A stretch of 64,000 nt of DNA, taken from positions 94,520 through 158,519 of the forward strand of contig METB01000001.1 in assembly GCA_001771185.1 (NCBI GenBank). Direction: 5' to 3'. Source of the DNA: a candidate division Kazan bacterium RIFCSPHIGHO2_01_FULL_44_14 (GTDB lineage Bacteria > Patescibacteriota > Kazan-3B-28). The notes below the pieces were generated by a model. The model made no database searches, was not told the origin of the DNA, and was given only the letters and a program-made list of their open reading frames with translations. Below are positions 1 to 42,008 of the stretch, piece after piece. How positions within the stretch are numbered: position 1 is the stretch's first letter; the number at the start of each line of letters is the position of its first letter. The translations under genes were made by a program, and so were the position numbers.

Positions 1-304
1 TTAAACTGCTGACATAACAATTTTTAAGAATTTCTGCCTCCCCACCTCTTTCCTGTCCAAAAACCGGGCCGACTGTATGGATGACATATTTGGCCAACAA
101 ATTGTGTCCAGCCGTTATCCGTGCTTCTCCTGTTGGACAATACCCCAGTTTTCTACATTCTTGCGTCAGCCCCAACCCTGCCACACGATGAATAGCTCCC
201 GACACTCCACCACCAGCGGTTAGACGATTGTTGGCGGAATTCACAATGACATCCGCATCCTGTGCGGTGATATCTCCTTTAATCAGGACTGGCTTATATT
301 TCAT
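1..304 (-). CDS. Macro-domain protein (ADP-ribose / O-acetyl-ADP-ribose processing, MacroD/YmdB-like); partial, C-terminus runs off window start
   Basis: Manual minus-strand translation from the ATG at 302-304 gives [43 protein letters not shown]...[17 protein letters not shown]. This matches the macro-domain NAAN..L..GGGV..AI..AAG and V.H.VGP motifs. The frame stays open to position 1. Confidence 0.8.
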
Positions 305-403: not shown

Positions 404-1165
404 CTATAAGCTATTGAGCTCTTTATACATTTTAGCCACCTCCTCTGCTATAGATTCATACTCATTTCTGCCCACGACTTCTCTAATCTGGTCAATGTAC
501 CGCGTAGTCAACCTAAGGTGAAACGTTAAACCCAAAAATAAACCCTGTTGCATATAAAGTCCGTTCATCATCTCTGATTCTTTCGGATCCAACATTCCCC
601 TCACCACCATAGGGTTTGGATGATTCAGCCTACTTCCCCAAATATAAGCCTGCCCTATACGAGAAAAATCGAAGTCATTCAAGCAATGCTTATCGTGTAG
701 AGCCTTGAGCATCATATCCGCACTTAGACCCGCCCAACTATGTCTACCGTCCTTCAAATAAGATGGCACTTTTTCATACGACTCTGCCAGAATAGCAGAT
801 GATACGTCCAAATTAAGTGCCTCCTCTTGGTCCTTACCGCCAATCGATTTCAAAAACTCACGATCTTGGGTTAATTGAACCCAAAGATAGTCTTGAAATT
901 CCTTGGCCTTTTTATCTCTACCCTTCATTAACATATATTCAACGGTAAGCGAATACTCGGTTAGCTTGCGAGCCAAGTCTAAAACGCTCGCCGCAGCCTC
1001 CGTATGAGTAGCAAGATAATTGATATCCCTTAGTGCGGAAAAGGACACCCGATATATCCCCAACAGAACAGTCAAAAAATCATCTTGCTCAGTTCTTGCC
1101 CCTTCCGCCAATGGCTGGGTCGCAACCAGTAGTCTAACAAGCAACGACTTGAACCTATTTATCAT
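404..1165 (-). CDS. Hypothetical protein (253 aa), second gene of a two-gene operon; no recognisable domain
   Basis: Long ORF with an 11-nt overlap with the upstream ORF 1155..1886 (operonic). The macro-domain gene lies 100 bp downstream on the same strand. No motif is recognisable by eye. Confidence 0.6.
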   Translation of the reverse strand: MINRFKSLLVRLLVATQPLAEGARTEQDDFLTVLLGIYRVSFSALRDINYLATHTEAAASVLDLARKLTEYSLTVEYMLMKGRDKKAKEFQDYLWVQLTQDREFLKSIGGKDQEEALNLDVSSAILAESYEKVPSYLKDGRHSWAGLSADMMLKALHDKHCLNDFDFSRIGQAYIWGSRLNHPNPMVVRGMLDPKESEMMNGLYMQQGLFLGLTFHLRLTTRYIDQIREVVGRNEYESIAEEVAKMYKELNSL

Positions 1166-1886
1166 TAGTCACGACCTCCGCCACATCTACAAATGGCTCA
1201 ATTCGAAGATGTTGGTAAAGCAAATCTCGTATATCCCCAAAAATCTGATCAAGTGCCCCATCAATCTGAACCTGATTACTGGCTGCTATGCCGATCCATC
1301 GCTTCTGGGCCAATTCAAAAGATTCTACTATTTTACGCTTAAAGTGATCCACTGCTTCGGGTCGCATCCGATCTTTAAATGGTGAACTATCTCCCGATAC
1401 AGTAGCAAACACGCTTGCATCCACAAGATCCGCATCTGCAAACCGCATTCCCGTATGGTGATGCGGAACTCTGCACTCGGCTATCCCATTAAATACCTTA
1501 TAGAGTTGTCCTTTAATATGTTTAAGAGCCACCACCCACTCTTTGCCATTATTGGCCCGTCGTACATCTTTGGTTAGTACATCAAGAAAAGTTTTAACCT
1601 TATCCTTCAAACTATCAACGTCCTCTAGATAAGCATGGAGATGATGTTCGAGTGCCTCTGCACTGCTGATTTGCCCCGACTGATCGGGATAAAACTCGGT
1701 AAAATAAACTTCGTACCTTTTAACTTTTTTCAGAGCTTGGCTCAGAATCATAAGAAGTCCCAAGTACCTCTCCAACTCTCCATCATCCACACCAGTCTTA
1801 TCGATCCTGGTTATATACTGCTTCATTAGACACTCGGGATGAGCATAGACCATAACATCTGCAACTACCTTGTCAAAATTATTCAT
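1155..1886 (-). CDS. Hypothetical protein (243 aa), first gene of the two-gene operon; no recognisable domain
   Basis: Long ORF starting at ATG 1886 (MNNFDKVV...). It overlaps the downstream ORF by 11 nt. It sits inside a defence-island context. Confidence 0.6.
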   Translation of the reverse strand: MNNFDKVVADVMVYAHPECLMKQYITRIDKTGVDDGELERYLGLLMILSQALKKVKRYEVYFTEFYPDQSGQISSAEALEHHLHAYLEDVDSLKDKVKTFLDVLTKDVRRANNGKEWVVALKHIKGQLYKVFNGIAECRVPHHHTGMRFADADLVDASVFATVSGDSSPFKDRMRPEAVDHFKRKIVESFELAQKRWIGIAASNQVQIDGALDQIFGDIRDLLYQHLRIEPFVDVAEVVTNDK

Positions 1887-2010
1887 TTTAATCCTAAGAC
1901 ATATAAAATAGGTAAAACTTAGACCCAGACCAACTATACAGTGCTATCCCACCAGAGATCTGTCAATCACCTCCATAAAGGAGCTGCACAAAAATACAAA
2001 CTATCTATAT

Positions 2011-3180
2011 TCAACGATTTCCTTTTGCTCTATTATGCGTCTTACATAACATCTCACAGTTTTTGGCCGCCGTTTCGCCACCCTTACTCCATGCCGTTAC
2101 ATGATCTGCGTCCATTTCGTCTAACTTCCAAATCTTACTCTTGCTGGCATCATGTCCAATAGCACAATATGGACAGTTTGATTTACCTTGAGCTTCAGCC
2201 CTAGCAGTCTGTGTTGAATAAACAGCCTTCTTGGTCGCCTCATCAAAAACTCGAACATCGATCAATTTTGTGTCAATGGACCCACCGAGAATATACTCAA
2301 AAATGCCTTTGCGATTTTTGATGTACGGATCGCCATAGAGCTTATGCACCTCGGCTGATACTTTGGCTGGGTTGTATGATTTTTTGTGATACTCCTCGTA
2401 AAGTCGTCCCCATTCAAGCCCACGCATTTCGCTTTCTACGTCAGTAAATACGCTAGATACCCAATCAATGACGGTATTAAAATATTTTTTCAGCTCATCA
2501 ATATTTTTGTCTTTGCGATGCTTGCTCATGTAGTCGCCAATATTGCCTTTGCTTACCCAATCAAGAGCACATTCCAAAAATTCTTGCCTGTTGGCACTAC
2601 CTGATACATACGCACTCCATTTTTGAATATTGGCGTTTTGGCTATTACTGAATTCCTCTTTAGCTCTAGTTACGAACGGGCCGGAATACACGGCGTTGAG
2701 TAATTCCTGATTATTGAGCGGAACACCAGCAATATTGATTGTCTTAAACCATTCTTTTATCTGACTTTCTGTCCCTTCACACTCGTAAATGAGCAGTTTC
2801 GTTTCCAAAATTTTGACTTGCTTGTCTTTTGCCATACCGCCATAATATTGCTCCATGCCATTTTCGTCTTTGATGGCAAATTTGTCGGTGATAAATCGTC
2901 CGAGACTAGTGATGCGCTGTTGCCCGTCTAAGACTTCTAGGTTGTCGTCAGAAACTTTGTTGAAATAAATCAATCCTATCGGGTATCCTTTGAGAATTGA
3001 TTCAATAACGGCCATTTCTCTTTTGCCTCCGTCAGAAGCATAGATATAATTACGCTGATACTCTGGCTGAATCGTTAGTTTGCCGGATAAGCCAAACAAA
3101 CCCTTGCCTTCAAGTTCGTTATAGACGAACCCATCACAAATATCTTTGACTGTGGTGCTAGTCTTAAGTGTTGTTTTCAT
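2011..3180 (-). CDS. DUF262 (ParB/Srx-like, DGQQR motif) N-terminal domain fused to a C-terminal HNH nuclease; putative restriction-type endonuclease
   Basis: Motifs [11 protein letters not shown] and [10 protein letters not shown] are the DUF262 QR and DGQQR signatures. The C-terminus CPYCAIGHD...[10 protein letters not shown]...[15 protein letters not shown] is an HNH motif (CxxC...H...N...H). The start lies 4 nt after the upstream methyltransferase stop. Confidence 0.8.
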
Positions 3181-3184
3181 ATTA

Positions 3185-4282
3185 TTATTTCTTACGTCTT
3201 ATAAAAACTCGCTTAAAAGTTTCCTTGCCACTAATATGTGATCCGCGACCGTAAATTCTATTTGGATCTTGATCTATGCCTCGATTCGATCCAAGCAATT
3301 CAAACTGATCTGGATTATATTTATCTAAAAAACTGACAGGAACACCCATCACACCATCATAATCGCTTGGAATGGCATCGGTAAACGGAATTTCAATGGC
3401 ATCGTAGTTATCGTACTTATCATAAGATTTTTTGCCTTTAATCTCTTTGTGCTTGCTGTATTTTAAGTTCTCCTCCATTGTCATAAGTGGCAATATTTGG
3501 TGACGACGCCCATGATCAAGATTGGTAAACCAACAACAGTTTCTGAATTTCACCAAGCCAGTTTCTGGGTCATACACCCCGCCCGCATATTCTCTAGTAA
3601 TAGGCGTAGAAAAATAAGCGTTGCCAGCATTAAAGCCATTTCCTAACCACATTTTATTTTCTTTTATCAATGGAAATATTTCCTTGTAAATAATCGCACT
3701 TAGGTTACCAATGATAACGAATTTTTTATGATACTCAAAAAGCTGCTTCACATATTCACGAAATAGACTGAACGGCGGATTAGTTACCACAATATCGGAT
3801 TGTTCTAGTAATTTTATGCACTCGGGACCTCTAAAATCGCCATCTTTCTCAAGCGGCGTCCATTCATTATTTCTGTTTGCCCTTAACTGTTTGGCAATAT
3901 CTTTCAAGTTGAACTCACCGTCGCCGTCTATGTCCTTCACTTCGTTGATAATAAATTTGTTGGCGGTTACCTTTGGGCGGCCTTTTGCTTTTACAAGCGT
4001 TTTGTCATCACCAAACAAGCCTAATTGCGTGTTAGCAACAGGCGACGGCTTATAACTAGTTGTAATGAGCCGTTTTAATCCAAGCTTATTAAAATTGAGC
4101 ACAAAATAACGAAAAAAATTGCTCTCAAACGGATCATCGCAATTACAATACACCACCTGATCTCGAAACACATTGGGATTATATTCCAGATACGCCGAAA
4201 TCTCTTTTTGGATATCGCTATATTGGGTATAAAACTCATCGTTCTTTACCCTTTTTGCATTCGTAAGATTACTGTTTGCCAT
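3185..4282 (-). CDS. Putative N6-adenine DNA methyltransferase (gamma-class order: FYT motif X, then NPPF motif IV)
   Basis: NDEFYTQ near the N-terminus and IVVTNPPFS (the NPPF catalytic motif) are present. It is immediately upstream of and co-directional with the DUF262-HNH gene. Motif I is atypical ([12 protein letters not shown]), hence the moderate confidence. Confidence 0.65.
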
Positions 4283-4438
4283 AGTACATCCCGATAGTAC
4301 TCCAATATAAAATCCTCTTCTAAAGCCAGTTTTTGACTCCTTTAGTATAACTCAAAATAAGGCTTATTGGGACTGGACTTCGAGCCCCCTTCGGGCATCC
4401 TTACTCTGGTATAGACCGATAGACAAATGGAGGTGAAT

Positions 4439-5776
4439 ATGGCGCAAAACGAAGCGGTTTTAGAGACCCCAGAGGGGACCAGAGAAGCTCCCCAAGCAGA
4501 AGTTGGGAGATACTGCCTCTATGCCCGAAAGTCATCCGAATCGGACGAAAGACAGGCCTTATCCATCGACTCCCAAATCAAAGAGATGATGGCTATCGCC
4601 GAACGGGATGGTATTGAGGTGGTCGAGACAATCAGAGAGAGCCATTCAGCTAAGGATTCCGGCCAAAGACCGGAGTTTATGGAGCTTTTAAGGCGAATCA
4701 GAGAACAAGAGTTCAATGGAATTCTCACTTGGGCTCCCGACAGACTTTCGAGAAATGCAGGGGATTTGGGAGATCTGGTGGATATGATGGACCAAGGATT
4801 GCTGAAACACATCAAGACACCTAGCCAGATATTTAGGAATTCCCCCAATGAGAAATTCCTTTTAATGATTCTGTGCAGTCAGGCAAAGTTGGAAAATGAT
4901 AATCGAGGCATCAATGTAAAACGCGGAATGAAAAATAAATGCGACATGGGTTGGATGCCGTGTCTCCCTCCGCTTGGTTATCTGAACGATAAAGCAAATC
5001 ACACAATCATTGTCGATGCAGAACGAGCTCCGTTTATTAAAGAAGCATTTAATAAAGTCGCCGAGGAAGGCTATACCGGCAGAGCGTTATGGAGTTGGTT
5101 TAATAAAGAAACAGAATTTACAACCAGAGCGGGAAAGAAGATGGCTCTAAGTATGGTTCACAATATGCTGAGAAATCATTTTTACTACGGCCAGTTTATG
5201 CACGGCGGAGTAATGCACCAAGGTAAACATGAACCGCTGATTACAAAAGAGCTGTTTGATAAAGTCAGAGAAGCCATGCAAAAAGGCCCTCGGGGCAGAT
5301 ATGGCGAAAAAATGTTCGCCTTCACTCGAATGATAACCTGCGGAAGATGCGAACTTGGAATAACAGCTGAAGAAAAAGTTAAAAAGCTAAAAAATGGAGA
5401 AGGCCGACGACATGTCTACTACCATTGCAGCGGGTTTGGCAAATATCGATGTAAAGAGGGCTGGATGCGAGAAGCCGACCTTATTGAGCAATTTGTTGAG
5501 CTAATAGATGGAATGGATATCAACCGAATTGGAATGAGAGAGAAACTCCAAGAAGAAATTGAACGATACAATCGCTTCACCACCGGAGTACTCGGTATGA
5601 ATCCCGACACTTCCCCAATTCCCAGAGTAGACCTTAAAATGTACGCGAAATATATCTTGAGAGATGGTAGTCCAGAAGAAAAGCGAGAAATATTAAAGAA
5701 CATCAAAAACAAGGTGGTGCTGCACGATGGAAAACTATCGCTACAAAACACTCCGGAGTTAATTGAGCCCATCTAA
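4439..5776 (+). CDS. Large serine recombinase / serine integrase (resolvase catalytic domain, recombinase domain, zinc-ribbon)
   Basis: YCLYARKSSESDERQALSIDSQ is the resolvase catalytic-Ser motif. The protein is ~445 aa with a Cys-rich region (CGRCE...HCSGFGKYRC). GGAGGTG lies 5 nt before the ATG at 4439; an alternative in-frame ATG is at 4427. Confidence 0.85.
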   Translation: MAQNEAVLETPEGTREAPQAEVGRYCLYARKSSESDERQALSIDSQIKEMMAIAERDGIEVVETIRESHSAKDSGQRPEFMELLRRIREQEFNGILTWAPDRLSRNAGDLGDLVDMMDQGLLKHIKTPSQIFRNSPNEKFLLMILCSQAKLENDNRGINVKRGMKNKCDMGWMPCLPPLGYLNDKANHTIIVDAERAPFIKEAFNKVAEEGYTGRALWSWFNKETEFTTRAGKKMALSMVHNMLRNHFYYGQFMHGGVMHQGKHEPLITKELFDKVREAMQKGPRGRYGEKMFAFTRMITCGRCELGITAEEKVKKLKNGEGRRHVYYHCSGFGKYRCKEGWMREADLIEQFVELIDGMDINRIGMREKLQEEIERYNRFTTGVLGMNPDTSPIPRVDLKMYAKYILRDGSPEEKREILKNIKNKVVLHDGKLSLQNTPELIEPI

Positions 5777-5892: not shown

Positions 5893-7404
5893 TTATGCCT
5901 CGTTCTCTGGGGATAGTGAAACAAAGAGTTCGTAAAGTTTCTGAAATTTCTCACCAAATATTCGCCCAATCCTATTCCTTCTTATGGCATCCTGCAAATA
6001 CGACTCAGCATATGCTAATTCGGATTTTCGTCCAATGAGTTTCTTGAGTAGTGGCTTGCCAGAAGTTAATTTTAATATAGCAGTGTCGATTTTTGTCTTA
6101 GCCACATTTGACATAGTTTTCCAGACTGGGTCTTGAGACGATGCCATCTTGGATTTAATAGTTGACTGTACATTACTTTTGGTTACCCCCAGTACAGCAG
6201 ATACGATATCTAAATCGTACATAAGACACCCCTCCATGTCATACTGAGCCAACTTAATGAAGTGATTATCTCCTGGAAATTTGTCTGGCTGGTTATCACC
6301 ATCAGTCAAAAAAGAAACATTCGTAATAACAGAGGGTATGGAATTGCTAGCAAATAATTTATAGGCACTTTCTACTCCACCTTTTGCATTGTGTACCTCA
6401 ATCACATCAACAAGCTTTTGTGCACCCGAAATTTTTGCCAATGTCTCGATAACTATTTTATGGATATGGTCTTCTACAAAAACCACATGATTCCCCGATG
6501 GGTCATTAACTATCTTGAATACTCGCGTCCTGAGAGCATCTATTGTTTCTGATGTGGGGTTGCTAGATATTGCAAAGTGTTTAGCCTTACGGTTAATTTC
6601 CAGGAACTTAGAAATATTTTTATAGCCCTCTTCAAACACAATCATTGAATGAGTTGCTACCACAATTTGCTTATCGTATTCTTTGGCGAACCAATTTAAA
6701 TAGTCAAAAAAATACTTCTCGAACGACCAATTCAGATGTATCTCAGGTTCGTCTATAAGAAAAACATCATATTCATCACGTGCTTCATAAAGTTGGAATG
6801 CTAGAGATATGGATTCAGTCTCGCCTACACTCAATTGGTCTGTTGTAACTTTAAGAAAGCCAAACTTTTTTATGACAAAATCAGGAACATCCGCCTCCTC
6901 AAGTTTTAGGTCAACTATCTGATATTCGCTATATAATCGTCTCAGAATATTATTAAACTCTCTTACGGTACGCTTAAGAATGGTTATTTGGTCAACGCCT
7001 TCAGGTGTCACATTGCGCGCTTCGTGATAATGATACAAAACGATATCCGAAAATGGCGGATAGGTTTGATGGGATAGCTCTTCTAGTTTGCGATTATAGG
7101 CATTTTTTAAGTCATCCTTAATCTTACGTTGACTAGAAAATATCTCTTGTACACTTTGCTTAAATTTCCTTATTTCGATGCTTCGACTTGGGCTGTAAAC
7201 GGCAACCCTAAGGCCGGCCTGTCTAGATTGTTGCTCAATCTCAGATAAGAGTTTGCTTTTCCCGGAACCATTAATACCAGAGATAAGATTCAAGTGGGGA
7301 TTAAGATCGACGATTAGCCCATGCAAAAAATCTAACCCCTCGAGGTCTTTATAACCACTTGTAGTAGCACTTGCTAAAAATTTTACCAATCCGTCTTCAT
7401 TCAT
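5893..7404 (-). CDS. OLD-family nuclease (N-terminal ABC-type ATPase, C-terminal TOPRIM), stand-alone (class 1 OLD / GajA-like without an adjacent helicase)
   Basis: Walker A is LISGINGSGKSKLL, signature-like QLSVGE, Walker B VFLIDEPEIHLN. The TOPRIM motifs are HVVFVEDHIHKIVIE (conserved Glu) and SFLTDGDNQ (DxD). No UvrD-like partner gene is adjacent. Confidence 0.8.
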   Translation of the reverse strand: MNEDGLVKFLASATTSGYKDLEGLDFLHGLIVDLNPHLNLISGINGSGKSKLLSEIEQQSRQAGLRVAVYSPSRSIEIRKFKQSVQEIFSSQRKIKDDLKNAYNRKLEELSHQTYPPFSDIVLYHYHEARNVTPEGVDQITILKRTVREFNNILRRLYSEYQIVDLKLEEADVPDFVIKKFGFLKVTTDQLSVGETESISLAFQLYEARDEYDVFLIDEPEIHLNWSFEKYFFDYLNWFAKEYDKQIVVATHSMIVFEEGYKNISKFLEINRKAKHFAISSNPTSETIDALRTRVFKIVNDPSGNHVVFVEDHIHKIVIETLAKISGAQKLVDVIEVHNAKGGVESAYKLFASNSIPSVITNVSFLTDGDNQPDKFPGDNHFIKLAQYDMEGCLMYDLDIVSAVLGVTKSNVQSTIKSKMASSQDPVWKTMSNVAKTKIDTAILKLTSGKPLLKKLIGRKSELAYAESYLQDAIRRNRIGRIFGEKFQKLYELFVSLSPENEA

Positions 7405-7561: not shown

Positions 7562-7635
7562 TGGCTGGGACGGAAGGACTCGAACCTTCGATCATGGGAC
7601 CAGAACCCATTGCCTTACCACTTGGCTACGTCCCA
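7562..7635 (-). tRNA. tRNA-Gln (anticodon CTG)
   Basis: A manual cloverleaf works. The acceptor TGGGACG/CGTCCCA has the U1:A72 pair, the D-stem is GCC/GGC, the anticodon stem is ATGGG/CCCAT with loop TTCTGGT, the T-arm is GAAGG-TTCGAGT-CCTTC, and the 3' end is an encoded GCCA. Confidence 0.8.
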
Positions 7636-7984
7636 CTAATAAGGCGTGAAAAAATAGTTTATCAATAAATTTGGTACGGAACCCGCCTACGCTCTACGAG
7701 CTTCGGAACGGGCAGGCAGGCGCCATCCGTTGTCTTATTTACCCCCGTAGCGAACTTCGCTCTGTTTCGGGGCCACTTGTCTGCCTGCCGATAGGCAGGG
7801 CTACACCCCATCACAATGAGTATTGAGTATAGAGAATTGGGTTATGAGTGTGAAGAGGGGTATCTGGAATTAGTGCAACCCCTCGGTCCTGCTGGACAGC
7901 AGGACTCGGGGAAACAAGGTTTATGTTTTAGTTTCTAGCTAGTCCAATTATCAGACATCTACCATGTCCGAAAGTATAAACCGA

Positions 7985-8299: not shown

Positions 8300-8610
8300 G
8301 TGGCAGATGTGTTAACAATATGTTATCCCTGCCTGCCGGCAGGCTCGAGCCGAAAGCATGTCCTCGCGAAGGCGGGGACGAAGTGCTTAGACACCGGGAA
8401 TCCAGAAAAGAAAAAATAAAGAATGTTTTTGTTTCTGTCTGGATCCCCGCCTTCCTGCCCGAATCGCTACGCCCGCCAGAAATGTTGTATCTACTACGGG
8501 CTGGCGAATCGTTGCGGGCGGGCGCGGGGATGACGGATGAAGAATTTAGTGAAACGCGGCCTTTGGCCTAGATTCTTCGCTTCGCTCAGAATGACAGGTA
8601 AGGGAAAGAG

Positions 8611-40843: not shown

Positions 40844-40892
40844 TGGCAGACCGTGGTGGAGCCTGCCTGCCGGTAGGCAGGGAAGTTAGAAC
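40844..40892. repeat. Intergenic repeat family R1, copy a (others at 41957..42008 and truncated at 46343..46372)
   Basis: tggcagaccgtggtggag-cctgcctgccggtaggcagg-gaagttag; the embedded hairpin is CCTGCC..GGCAGG. Confidence 0.7.
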
Positions 40893-41956: not shown

Positions 41957-42008
41957 TGGCAGACCGTGGTGGAGCCTGCCTGCCGGTAGGCAGGGAAGTT
42001 AGGACTAC
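41957..42008. repeat. R1 repeat copy b
   Basis: tggcagaccgtggtggagcctgcctgccggtaggcagggaagttagg is identical to copy a over 46 nt. Confidence 0.7.

Follow-up and report, generated by a model that had tools for sequence, protein, structure and literature searches.

A candidate restriction-modification module pairing an EcoRI-family adenine methylase with a DUF262–HNH nuclease, and a possible methylase-guided mechanism

Proteins that fuse COG1479-type ParB-like domains to HNH nucleases have been linked to restriction-modification (R-M) systems (PMC3632139), are widely transferred with their function left unexamined (PMC6287321) and have also been called “novel” (PMC12704722); among nucleases with the same DUF262 type of domain, nucleoside triphosphate (NTP)-gated activity is documented for BrxU and SspE (PMC10952713). 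Here we analyze a locus of this kind in candidate division Kazan bacterium RIFCSPHIGHO2_01_FULL_44_14, on a stretch of 64,000 nucleotides (contig METB01000001.1 of assembly GCA_001771185.1, positions 94,520 to 158,519 of the forward strand; hereafter the window, with position 1 as its first letter), in which a gene for an EcoRI-family N6-adenine DNA methyltransferase (M) is followed directly by one for a DUF262–HNH nuclease (R). The two genes very probably constitute a real and intact R-M module, and we see about an even chance that this module operates by a methylase-guided mechanism. More tentatively, at somewhat less than even chance, it may represent an undescribed class of R-M system, occurring in hundreds of bacterial and archaeal lineages, in which modification and specificity would both be provided by an EcoRI-type methylase whose two recognition cassettes recombine freely, the methylase guiding a universal, sequence-blind ParB-type/HNH nuclease; such a system would resemble Types III and I in function but be built from folds unrelated to theirs, and in it the junction between the two genes would be an insertion hotspot for defense genes. 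The initial annotation of this DNA, made from the letters alone, had regarded the arrangement as unusual. As to rarity, this does not hold: relatives are carried by at least 589 species genomes, both proteins are already catalogued as Type II components in PADLOC, and annotation pipelines call them R-M. It does hold for the literature, in which we found no description of a DUF262–HNH protein paired with an EcoRI-family methylase, of the pattern of constant nuclease and variable methylase described below, or of the mechanism; the family is very widespread and appears to be characterized nowhere in the papers found.

The M gene (365 codons; 3185..4282, minus strand), taken from the list of open reading frames (ORFs), encodes a protein that matches the Pfam profile EcoRI_methylase (PF13651) almost from end to end (E=6.6e-123; residues 5–363 of 365 against profile positions 1–344 of 345), with a score of 410.8 bits against a curated cut-off of 26.4, and it is also matched by the PADLOC model MTase_II PDLC03297 (E=1.1e-100). 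The genuine M.EcoRI, represented by an Escherichia coli plasmid copy that adjoins a gene for “type-2 restriction enzyme EcoRI”, aligns with it end to end, at 42% identity in tblastn and 50% in the alignment. M is, by these comparisons, a full-length gamma-type N6-adenine DNA methylase of the EcoRI family with the corresponding predicted activity, and not an RNA or protein methylase, in agreement with what the initial annotation had read from its NPPF motif. This motif IV (residues 168–171; 3770..3781, minus strand) is invariant in 54 homologues and, like motif I (VVYCNCDDP, residues 43–51), identical in M.EcoRI; hence the Cys-containing motif I, earlier taken to be atypical, is the norm of the family. 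Two segments of M are hypervariable among its relatives: cassette A (residues ~213–250; 3533..3646, minus strand; type A1 in the window), a putative target-recognition loop, and cassette B (residues ~331–357; 3212..3292, minus strand; type B10 in the window), a putative second target-recognition element. In the AlphaFold2 (AF2) model of M, residues 218–234, within cassette A, have a predicted local distance difference test score (pLDDT) below 50; low values of this kind are common for DNA-contacting loops modelled without DNA. Residues ~80–140 form an extra insert relative to M.EcoRI. A PDB sequence search with M gave no match, and NCBIfam has no model for either M or R.

The R gene (389 codons; 2011..3180, minus strand), delineated from the ORF list, Pfam, PADLOC, homologues and a structure model, is separated from the stop codon of M by a spacer of just four nucleotides, TAAT (3181..3184, minus strand), as had been noticed at the outset. 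Its product, 100% identical to an NCBI protein of the Kazan genome, combines an N-terminal DUF262 (GmrSD_N; ParB/Srx-like) domain (residues ~33–165; 2686..3084, minus strand), a helical middle region (residues ~166–333; 2182..2685, minus strand) delimited from the AF2 secondary structure, and a C-terminal zinc-finger HNH nuclease domain (residues ~334–389; 2014..2181, minus strand). The fusion of a DUF262/ParB-like domain to a bona fide HNH nuclease proposed earlier is borne out by the profiles: Pfam recovers GmrSD_N with E=1.5e-21 (residues 36–165) and HNH PF01844 with E=7.8e-7 (residues 336–389), with no Pfam match to DUF1524. Among 59 homologues 60–91% identical to the window R, the predicted nucleotide-binding motifs of the DUF262 domain, QPEYQR (Q38-P-E-Y-Q-R43) and DGQQR (D85 and Q87-Q-R89), are invariant, with G86 nearly so; equally invariant are the zinc and catalytic residues of the HNH domain (C336, C339, D359, H360, N374, C379, H382 and N383), which therefore has an intact catalytic center. 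In profile searches the HNH residues fall opposite D53/H54/N68/N77 of 4h9d, the Gme HNH nuclease, their roles as catalytic His, structural Asn and metal-binding Asn/His being assigned after PMC4619093, and the DUF262 motifs align to BrxU; the structures nearest to R are those of BrxU and SspE. From the conserved motifs, R may be NTP-dependent.

Among the PADLOC models, REase_II PDLC03418 covers R from end to end (E=7.9e-83); this is a catalogue label and does not by itself point to a characterized enzyme. The models NsnA (7e-27) and PD-T4-2_A (7e-15) match the DUF262 portion, covering residues ~33–247 only, the GmrSD-like models HEC-05/06 match weakly, and some homologues of R are annotated as McrA-like by the Joint Genome Institute (JGI). 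The helical middle region, with pLDDT mostly of 72–95, is a candidate for contacts with DNA or with M. A PDB sequence search with R as a single sequence gave chance matches only. Within the same region, residues ~243–290 (2311–2454) weakly match three CW_7-like repeats of the lysozyme structure 5i8l (E=0.0012), which is probably due to chance.

The association of the two genes was examined in 80 genome loci, the best 80 from the at least 589 species genomes (one genome per species) with relatives of R; at least 8000 relatives of R were scored, and at E<=1e-30 the family comprises 447 clusters when sequences are represented at 50% identity. These 80 loci come from Patescibacteria, Omnitrophota, Chloroflexota, Bacteroidota, Proteobacteria, Firmicutes, Planctomycetota, Elusimicrobiota and DPANN archaea. 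M lies upstream of R on the same strand in 75 of the 76 informative loci: in 55 of the 80 it is directly 5′ of R, at a distance of -4 to +35 nt (usually a spacer of 1 nt or overlapping ATGA codons), and in 20 it is 5′ of R with 77–3099 nt in between, while of the remaining five, four have too little upstream DNA and one lacks M. Metagenome contigs with a near-identical R always show the order EcoRI_methylase then nuclease, often preceded by a helix-turn-helix gene of 68–82 codons, and plasmids of Moraxella, Enterococcus faecium, Pediococcus, Arthrobacter, Rhodococcus and others carry the pair as well. Such consistency far exceeds what chance would give. Moreover, homology at the DNA level between the window and all these loci is limited to positions 1999–4291, which is to say the two genes, and the gene pair is therefore the unit of transfer. 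The DNA identity in these comparisons is 71–81% and the identity of the R proteins 80–91%; since the latter exceeds the former, R is under strong purifying selection. The identity of M, the intact HNH domain, the M-to-R synteny, the genes resembling R-M controllers in some relatives (see below) and the PADLOC model together support the earlier proposal of an R-M-like module whose methylase would protect the host.

The two partners evolve in very different ways. Relative to the window proteins, R is 80–91% and M 43–88% identical, such that the nuclease is more conserved than the methylase, and the variation of M is concentrated in cassettes A and B, which display 12–32% conservation and indels between nearly invariant flanks. 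Across 66 M/R pairs we counted 11 types of cassette A and 36 types of cassette B, in 47 combinations. R, on the other hand, has no hypervariable segment, its lowest 10-residue bin still having a majority-residue frequency of 0.64. The decoupling is apparent in individual pairs of loci: between L069 and L084, R and the core of M are each 94% identical, but cassettes A and B only 23% and 7%, respectively; similarly, L001 and L009 have R proteins 94% identical and unrelated cassettes. Over all pairs, the Spearman correlation of R identity is 0.48 with the M core and 0.05 and 0.07 with the two cassettes. Nor does any single column of R follow the type of cassette A: the best carries 0.81 bits out of a total of 2.17, against a 95th percentile of 0.75 and a maximum of 0.85 under permutation, whereas columns of the M core carry up to 1.53 bits. 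By all these measures the cassettes are shuffled independently of R.

That the shuffled segments are target-recognition elements is suggested by comparison with M.EcoRI. The A2 type of cassette A shares 27 of 41 positions with the equivalent segment of M.EcoRI (9 of 41 for the A1 type of the window), and that segment includes Tyr205, which is Tyr204 of the mature enzyme; Wong and Reich reportedly identified this Tyr204 as the residue photo-crosslinked to the DNA target. The Nanomotif supplement held no motif data for PF13651. If the methylases differ in specificity while R does not, R would lack a matching specificity of its own; indeed, because R is near-constant and none of its residues tracks the cassettes, it most likely reads no sequence itself.

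Three kinds of loci depart from the simple pair. In about a quarter of the genomes, same-strand genes, 0.6–3.1 kb in all, sit exactly between M and R (L020, L021, L025, L041–L043, L045, L046, L055, L065, L068, L069, L071, L073, L075, L077, L080, L090 and L091). The inserted genes include those for PIN_8, an OLD-family nuclease, PD-Lambda-5 A+B, RhuM (PDC-S05), DUF2130, Schlafen/AlbA_2+HATPase_c_4, Bro-N (PDC-S13), PDC-S57 and Shedu SduA; the M–R junction thus looks like a hotspot for embedded defense genes. At another locus (L096, 5001–7067) EcoRI_methylase and DUF262–HNH are united in a single ORF encoding a 688-residue protein, P0436, with no stop codon of any kind at the M–R junction. The organism uses genetic code 4, in which TGA encodes Trp, and an origin by TGA read-through was rejected, as the in-frame TGAs fall at conserved Trp positions (five were checked against the window protein). 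The methylase motifs of P0436 are degenerate, with FPSF in place of NPPF and CNAGDG in place of CNCDDP, and no second methylase is evident nearby; its methylase is probably dead, with the fold kept as an N-terminal module of the nuclease. Conversely, L034 (3405–5623) holds an intact R with a RhuM-like gene 5′ of it and housekeeping genes at the flanks; the nearest 4.4 kb upstream and 3.7 kb downstream contain no methylase of the EcoRI family. A host could tolerate R without M only if R did no harm by itself, and L034 therefore points to a guided mechanism, as does the fusion, neither being decisive. Additionally, a gene for a helix-turn-helix (HTH_3/XRE) protein of 68–82 residues lies directly 5′ of M in one clade of the family (L001 326–532, L009 8655–8867 and relatives), being present in L001–L011 and L015, and resembles the controller (C) proteins of R-M systems. 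It is absent from most other loci and from the window, where the 144 nt between M and the neighboring recombinase gene hold no suitable ORF.

The most economical model for these observations follows the Mod/Res logic of Type III (and Type I) systems. M would methylate adenines at a site set by its two swappable cassettes, thereby marking the host DNA as self, and R would cleave or nick DNA without this mark. On meeting an unmethylated site, M might recruit or license R, thus serving as a Mod-like specificity subunit, and the DUF262 domain, by binding and hydrolyzing NTP, would be the switch that licenses the HNH nuclease, as in SspE and BrxU.

Several points weigh against such a guided mechanism. 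PADLOC labels R a Type II restriction endonuclease (REase), by definition an enzyme that reads its own site, and the Type III Mod and Res subunits, from which the logic is borrowed, are unrelated in fold to M and R, which makes them comparable in logic only. The methylation and cleavage reactions, the use of NTP and a complex of M with R are all predictions, the target-recognition role of the cassettes is putative, with no structure of the methylase family having been found, and the AF2 model of R is of moderate quality (pLDDT 78.7, predicted template modelling score 0.53). Separation of M and R by up to 3.1 kb in 20 loci indicates that tight co-translation is not required. Further, P0436 and L034 each stand alone, and either locus may be in decay. 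The most conventional alternative is an orthodox Type II system, in which R alone would read and cut one fixed site by means of its middle and HNH regions and all variants of M would cover that site, the cassettes being surface loops whose diversity has other causes, such as escape from phage anti-methylase or anti-restriction proteins. A PADLOC Type II REase model spanning the full R, separate genes for M and R that tolerate insertions between them, a C-protein-like HTH gene in some relatives and a strong conservation of R that befits a fixed specificity are all what such a system would lead one to expect. It would, however, need all 47 cassette combinations, unrelated sequences and indels included, to cover one and the same site, even though cassette A is equivalent to a segment of M.EcoRI that is said to contact DNA. 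Type II REases are, besides, normally far less conserved than their methylases, the reverse of what is seen here, and the conserved NTP motifs, the degenerate-methylase fusion and the intact orphan R would be left unexplained. We therefore regard it as unlikely, if still a serious contender.

The constancy of R against a variable M could also arise if R scanned DNA with the help of NTP and cut whatever is low in N6-methyladenine (m6A), irrespective of the motif and with no need for contact with M; protection would then come from any adenine methylase whose sites are frequent. Such direct sensing would tolerate genes inserted between the two, and the DUF262-family proteins BrxU, GmrSD and SspE are known readers of the modification state of DNA (PMC10952713); but the DUF262 nucleases known so far all respond to the presence of a modification and not to its absence, no recognizable m6A-reader domain was found in R, and neither the invariable choice of an EcoRI-family methylase as partner nor the fusion to a probably dead methylase would be accounted for, which makes this reading improbable. 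It is harder still to credit that R attacks modified phage DNA in the Type IV-like manner of GmrSD and BrxU, with the methylase being a separate entity (an orphan or epigenetic enzyme, or a counter-measure) linked to it by co-transfer in islands. BrxU and SspE are the structural neighbors of R, the McrA-like annotation of some homologues leans the same way, and the module does sit in a defense-type island; yet the fixed same-strand order of M before R across phyla and plasmids, the confinement of DNA homology to exactly the two genes and the existence of an M–R fusion all speak for a functional unit, and R has neither DUF1524 nor the long linker of GmrSD and is matched only weakly by HEC-05/06. 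We consider this last possibility very improbable.

In the window, the module lies in what is probably a mobile defense island. Divergent from M is a gene for a large serine recombinase (4427..5776, plus strand) with profile matches to Resolvase, Recombinase and a Zn ribbon, which is probably the mobility gene of the island. Recombinases 30–55% identical to it adjoin the M–R pair in nine of the 80 genome loci, and those listed with a recombinase beside the pair are L009, L015, L016, L019, L027, L037, L058, L066, L067 and L089; the R-M cassette may thus often ride on serine-recombinase elements. Beyond the recombinase is a gene for a 503-residue AAA_15/AriA/OLD-like ATPase (5893–7404, minus strand), which is matched in PADLOC by AriA (best, 9e-18), PtuA, GajA and ATPase-Toprim and appears from these matches to be a single-gene OLD/PARIS-like defense candidate; it is adjoined by a tRNA-Gln gene (7562–7635). 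Downstream of R are two genes that overlap by 11 nt, one for a DUF5677 protein (404–1165, minus strand), at a weak 25.7 bits against a cut-off of 27.1, and one for a 243-residue protein without a match in any library (1155–1886, minus strand); neither was found near the M–R pair in other loci. Just beyond the island, a macro-domain-like ORF (1–290, minus strand) is cut off by the left edge of the window. Copies of a palindromic, REP-like hairpin, CCTGCCGRYAGGCAGG, lie at 365–380, 7784–7799, 8328–8343, 40866–40881 and 41979–41994 (10 strand matches against 0.2 expected), and those at 365 and 7784 bracket the island; no direct repeats were found at the island borders, for which these two hairpins are the only candidates, though copies are present elsewhere in the window too. 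Scans for promoters and terminators gave nothing above shuffled controls.

The host part of the window (7801–64000) is depleted in several short words: GATC occurs 236 times against 472 expected, ACGT 60 against 174, and the asymmetric AGACT 17 against 85, with AGCT depleted as well and GAATTC only mildly so (z=-2.2). Other restriction systems, present or former, may lie behind these depletions; none of them could be tied to the M–R module.

Were the specificity of R indeed to come from M, this would add a fourth, independent form of restriction guided by a methylase to those of Types I, III and IIG/ISP. A ParB-type nucleotide switch would stand where others have a helicase-like motor; the system would thereby link the field of ParB CTPases to restriction and would provide a role for the widely transferred COG1479 “ParB-like and HNH” proteins (PMC6287321). 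A constant nuclease served by a two-cassette methylase would also lend itself naturally, as a scaffold, to reprogrammable DNA recognition, and the cassette type would predict methylation motifs in uncultured genomes of the candidate phyla radiation (CPR) and DPANN. The M–R junction, for its part, offers a new place to look for defense genes.

Set against the known systems, the M–R module shares some features with each of several types. With the EcoRI system it shares the methylase, M being a full-length member of the same family with common motifs I and IV; however, M.EcoRI lacks the ~80–140 insert and differs in its cassettes, R.EcoRI is a PD-(D/E)XK enzyme unrelated to the window R, and the gene order there is R before M, as opposed to M before R. 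With GmrSD, BrxU and SspE, R has in common an N-terminal ParB/Srx-like domain (DUF262) that bears the DGQQR and QR motifs and a C-terminal His-Me-finger nuclease that is likely NTP-gated. Those proteins, though, are roughly 560–600 residues long (about 550–600 for the GmrSD family), with DUF1524 and, in GmrSD, a long linker, and are modification-dependent or phosphorothioate-sensing, whereas R has 389 residues and a classical zinc-finger HNH domain (PF01844) and is encoded with its own methylase. Membership of R in the GmrSD family was hence rejected, only DUF262 matching, with no DUF1524 and with a methylase partner in 75 of 76 informative loci, as was membership in Dazbog-type or Menshen systems, where again the DUF262 domain alone matches; Menshen NsnA and PD-T4-2_A have other partner genes (OLD-type ATPase etc.), no HNH and no methylase. 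Adjacent, separate R and M genes matching catalogued PADLOC Type II models are, in turn, what the window has in common with Type II systems. In organization there is a parallel with Type III, in which a mod-to-res gene order, a variable methylase and a conserved restriction subunit joining an NTP-dependent domain to a nuclease all recur in M–R, with cassette-set specificity predicted for the latter. Nevertheless, Res combines a superfamily 2 (SF2) helicase-like ATPase with a PD-(D/E)XK nuclease while R combines a ParB/Srx fold with HNH, and Mod is a beta-class methylase with one central target-recognition domain while M is of the EcoRI type with two cassettes. Type III membership is thus rejected by the fold of both proteins, and it is in logic only that the M–R module resembles a Type III system.

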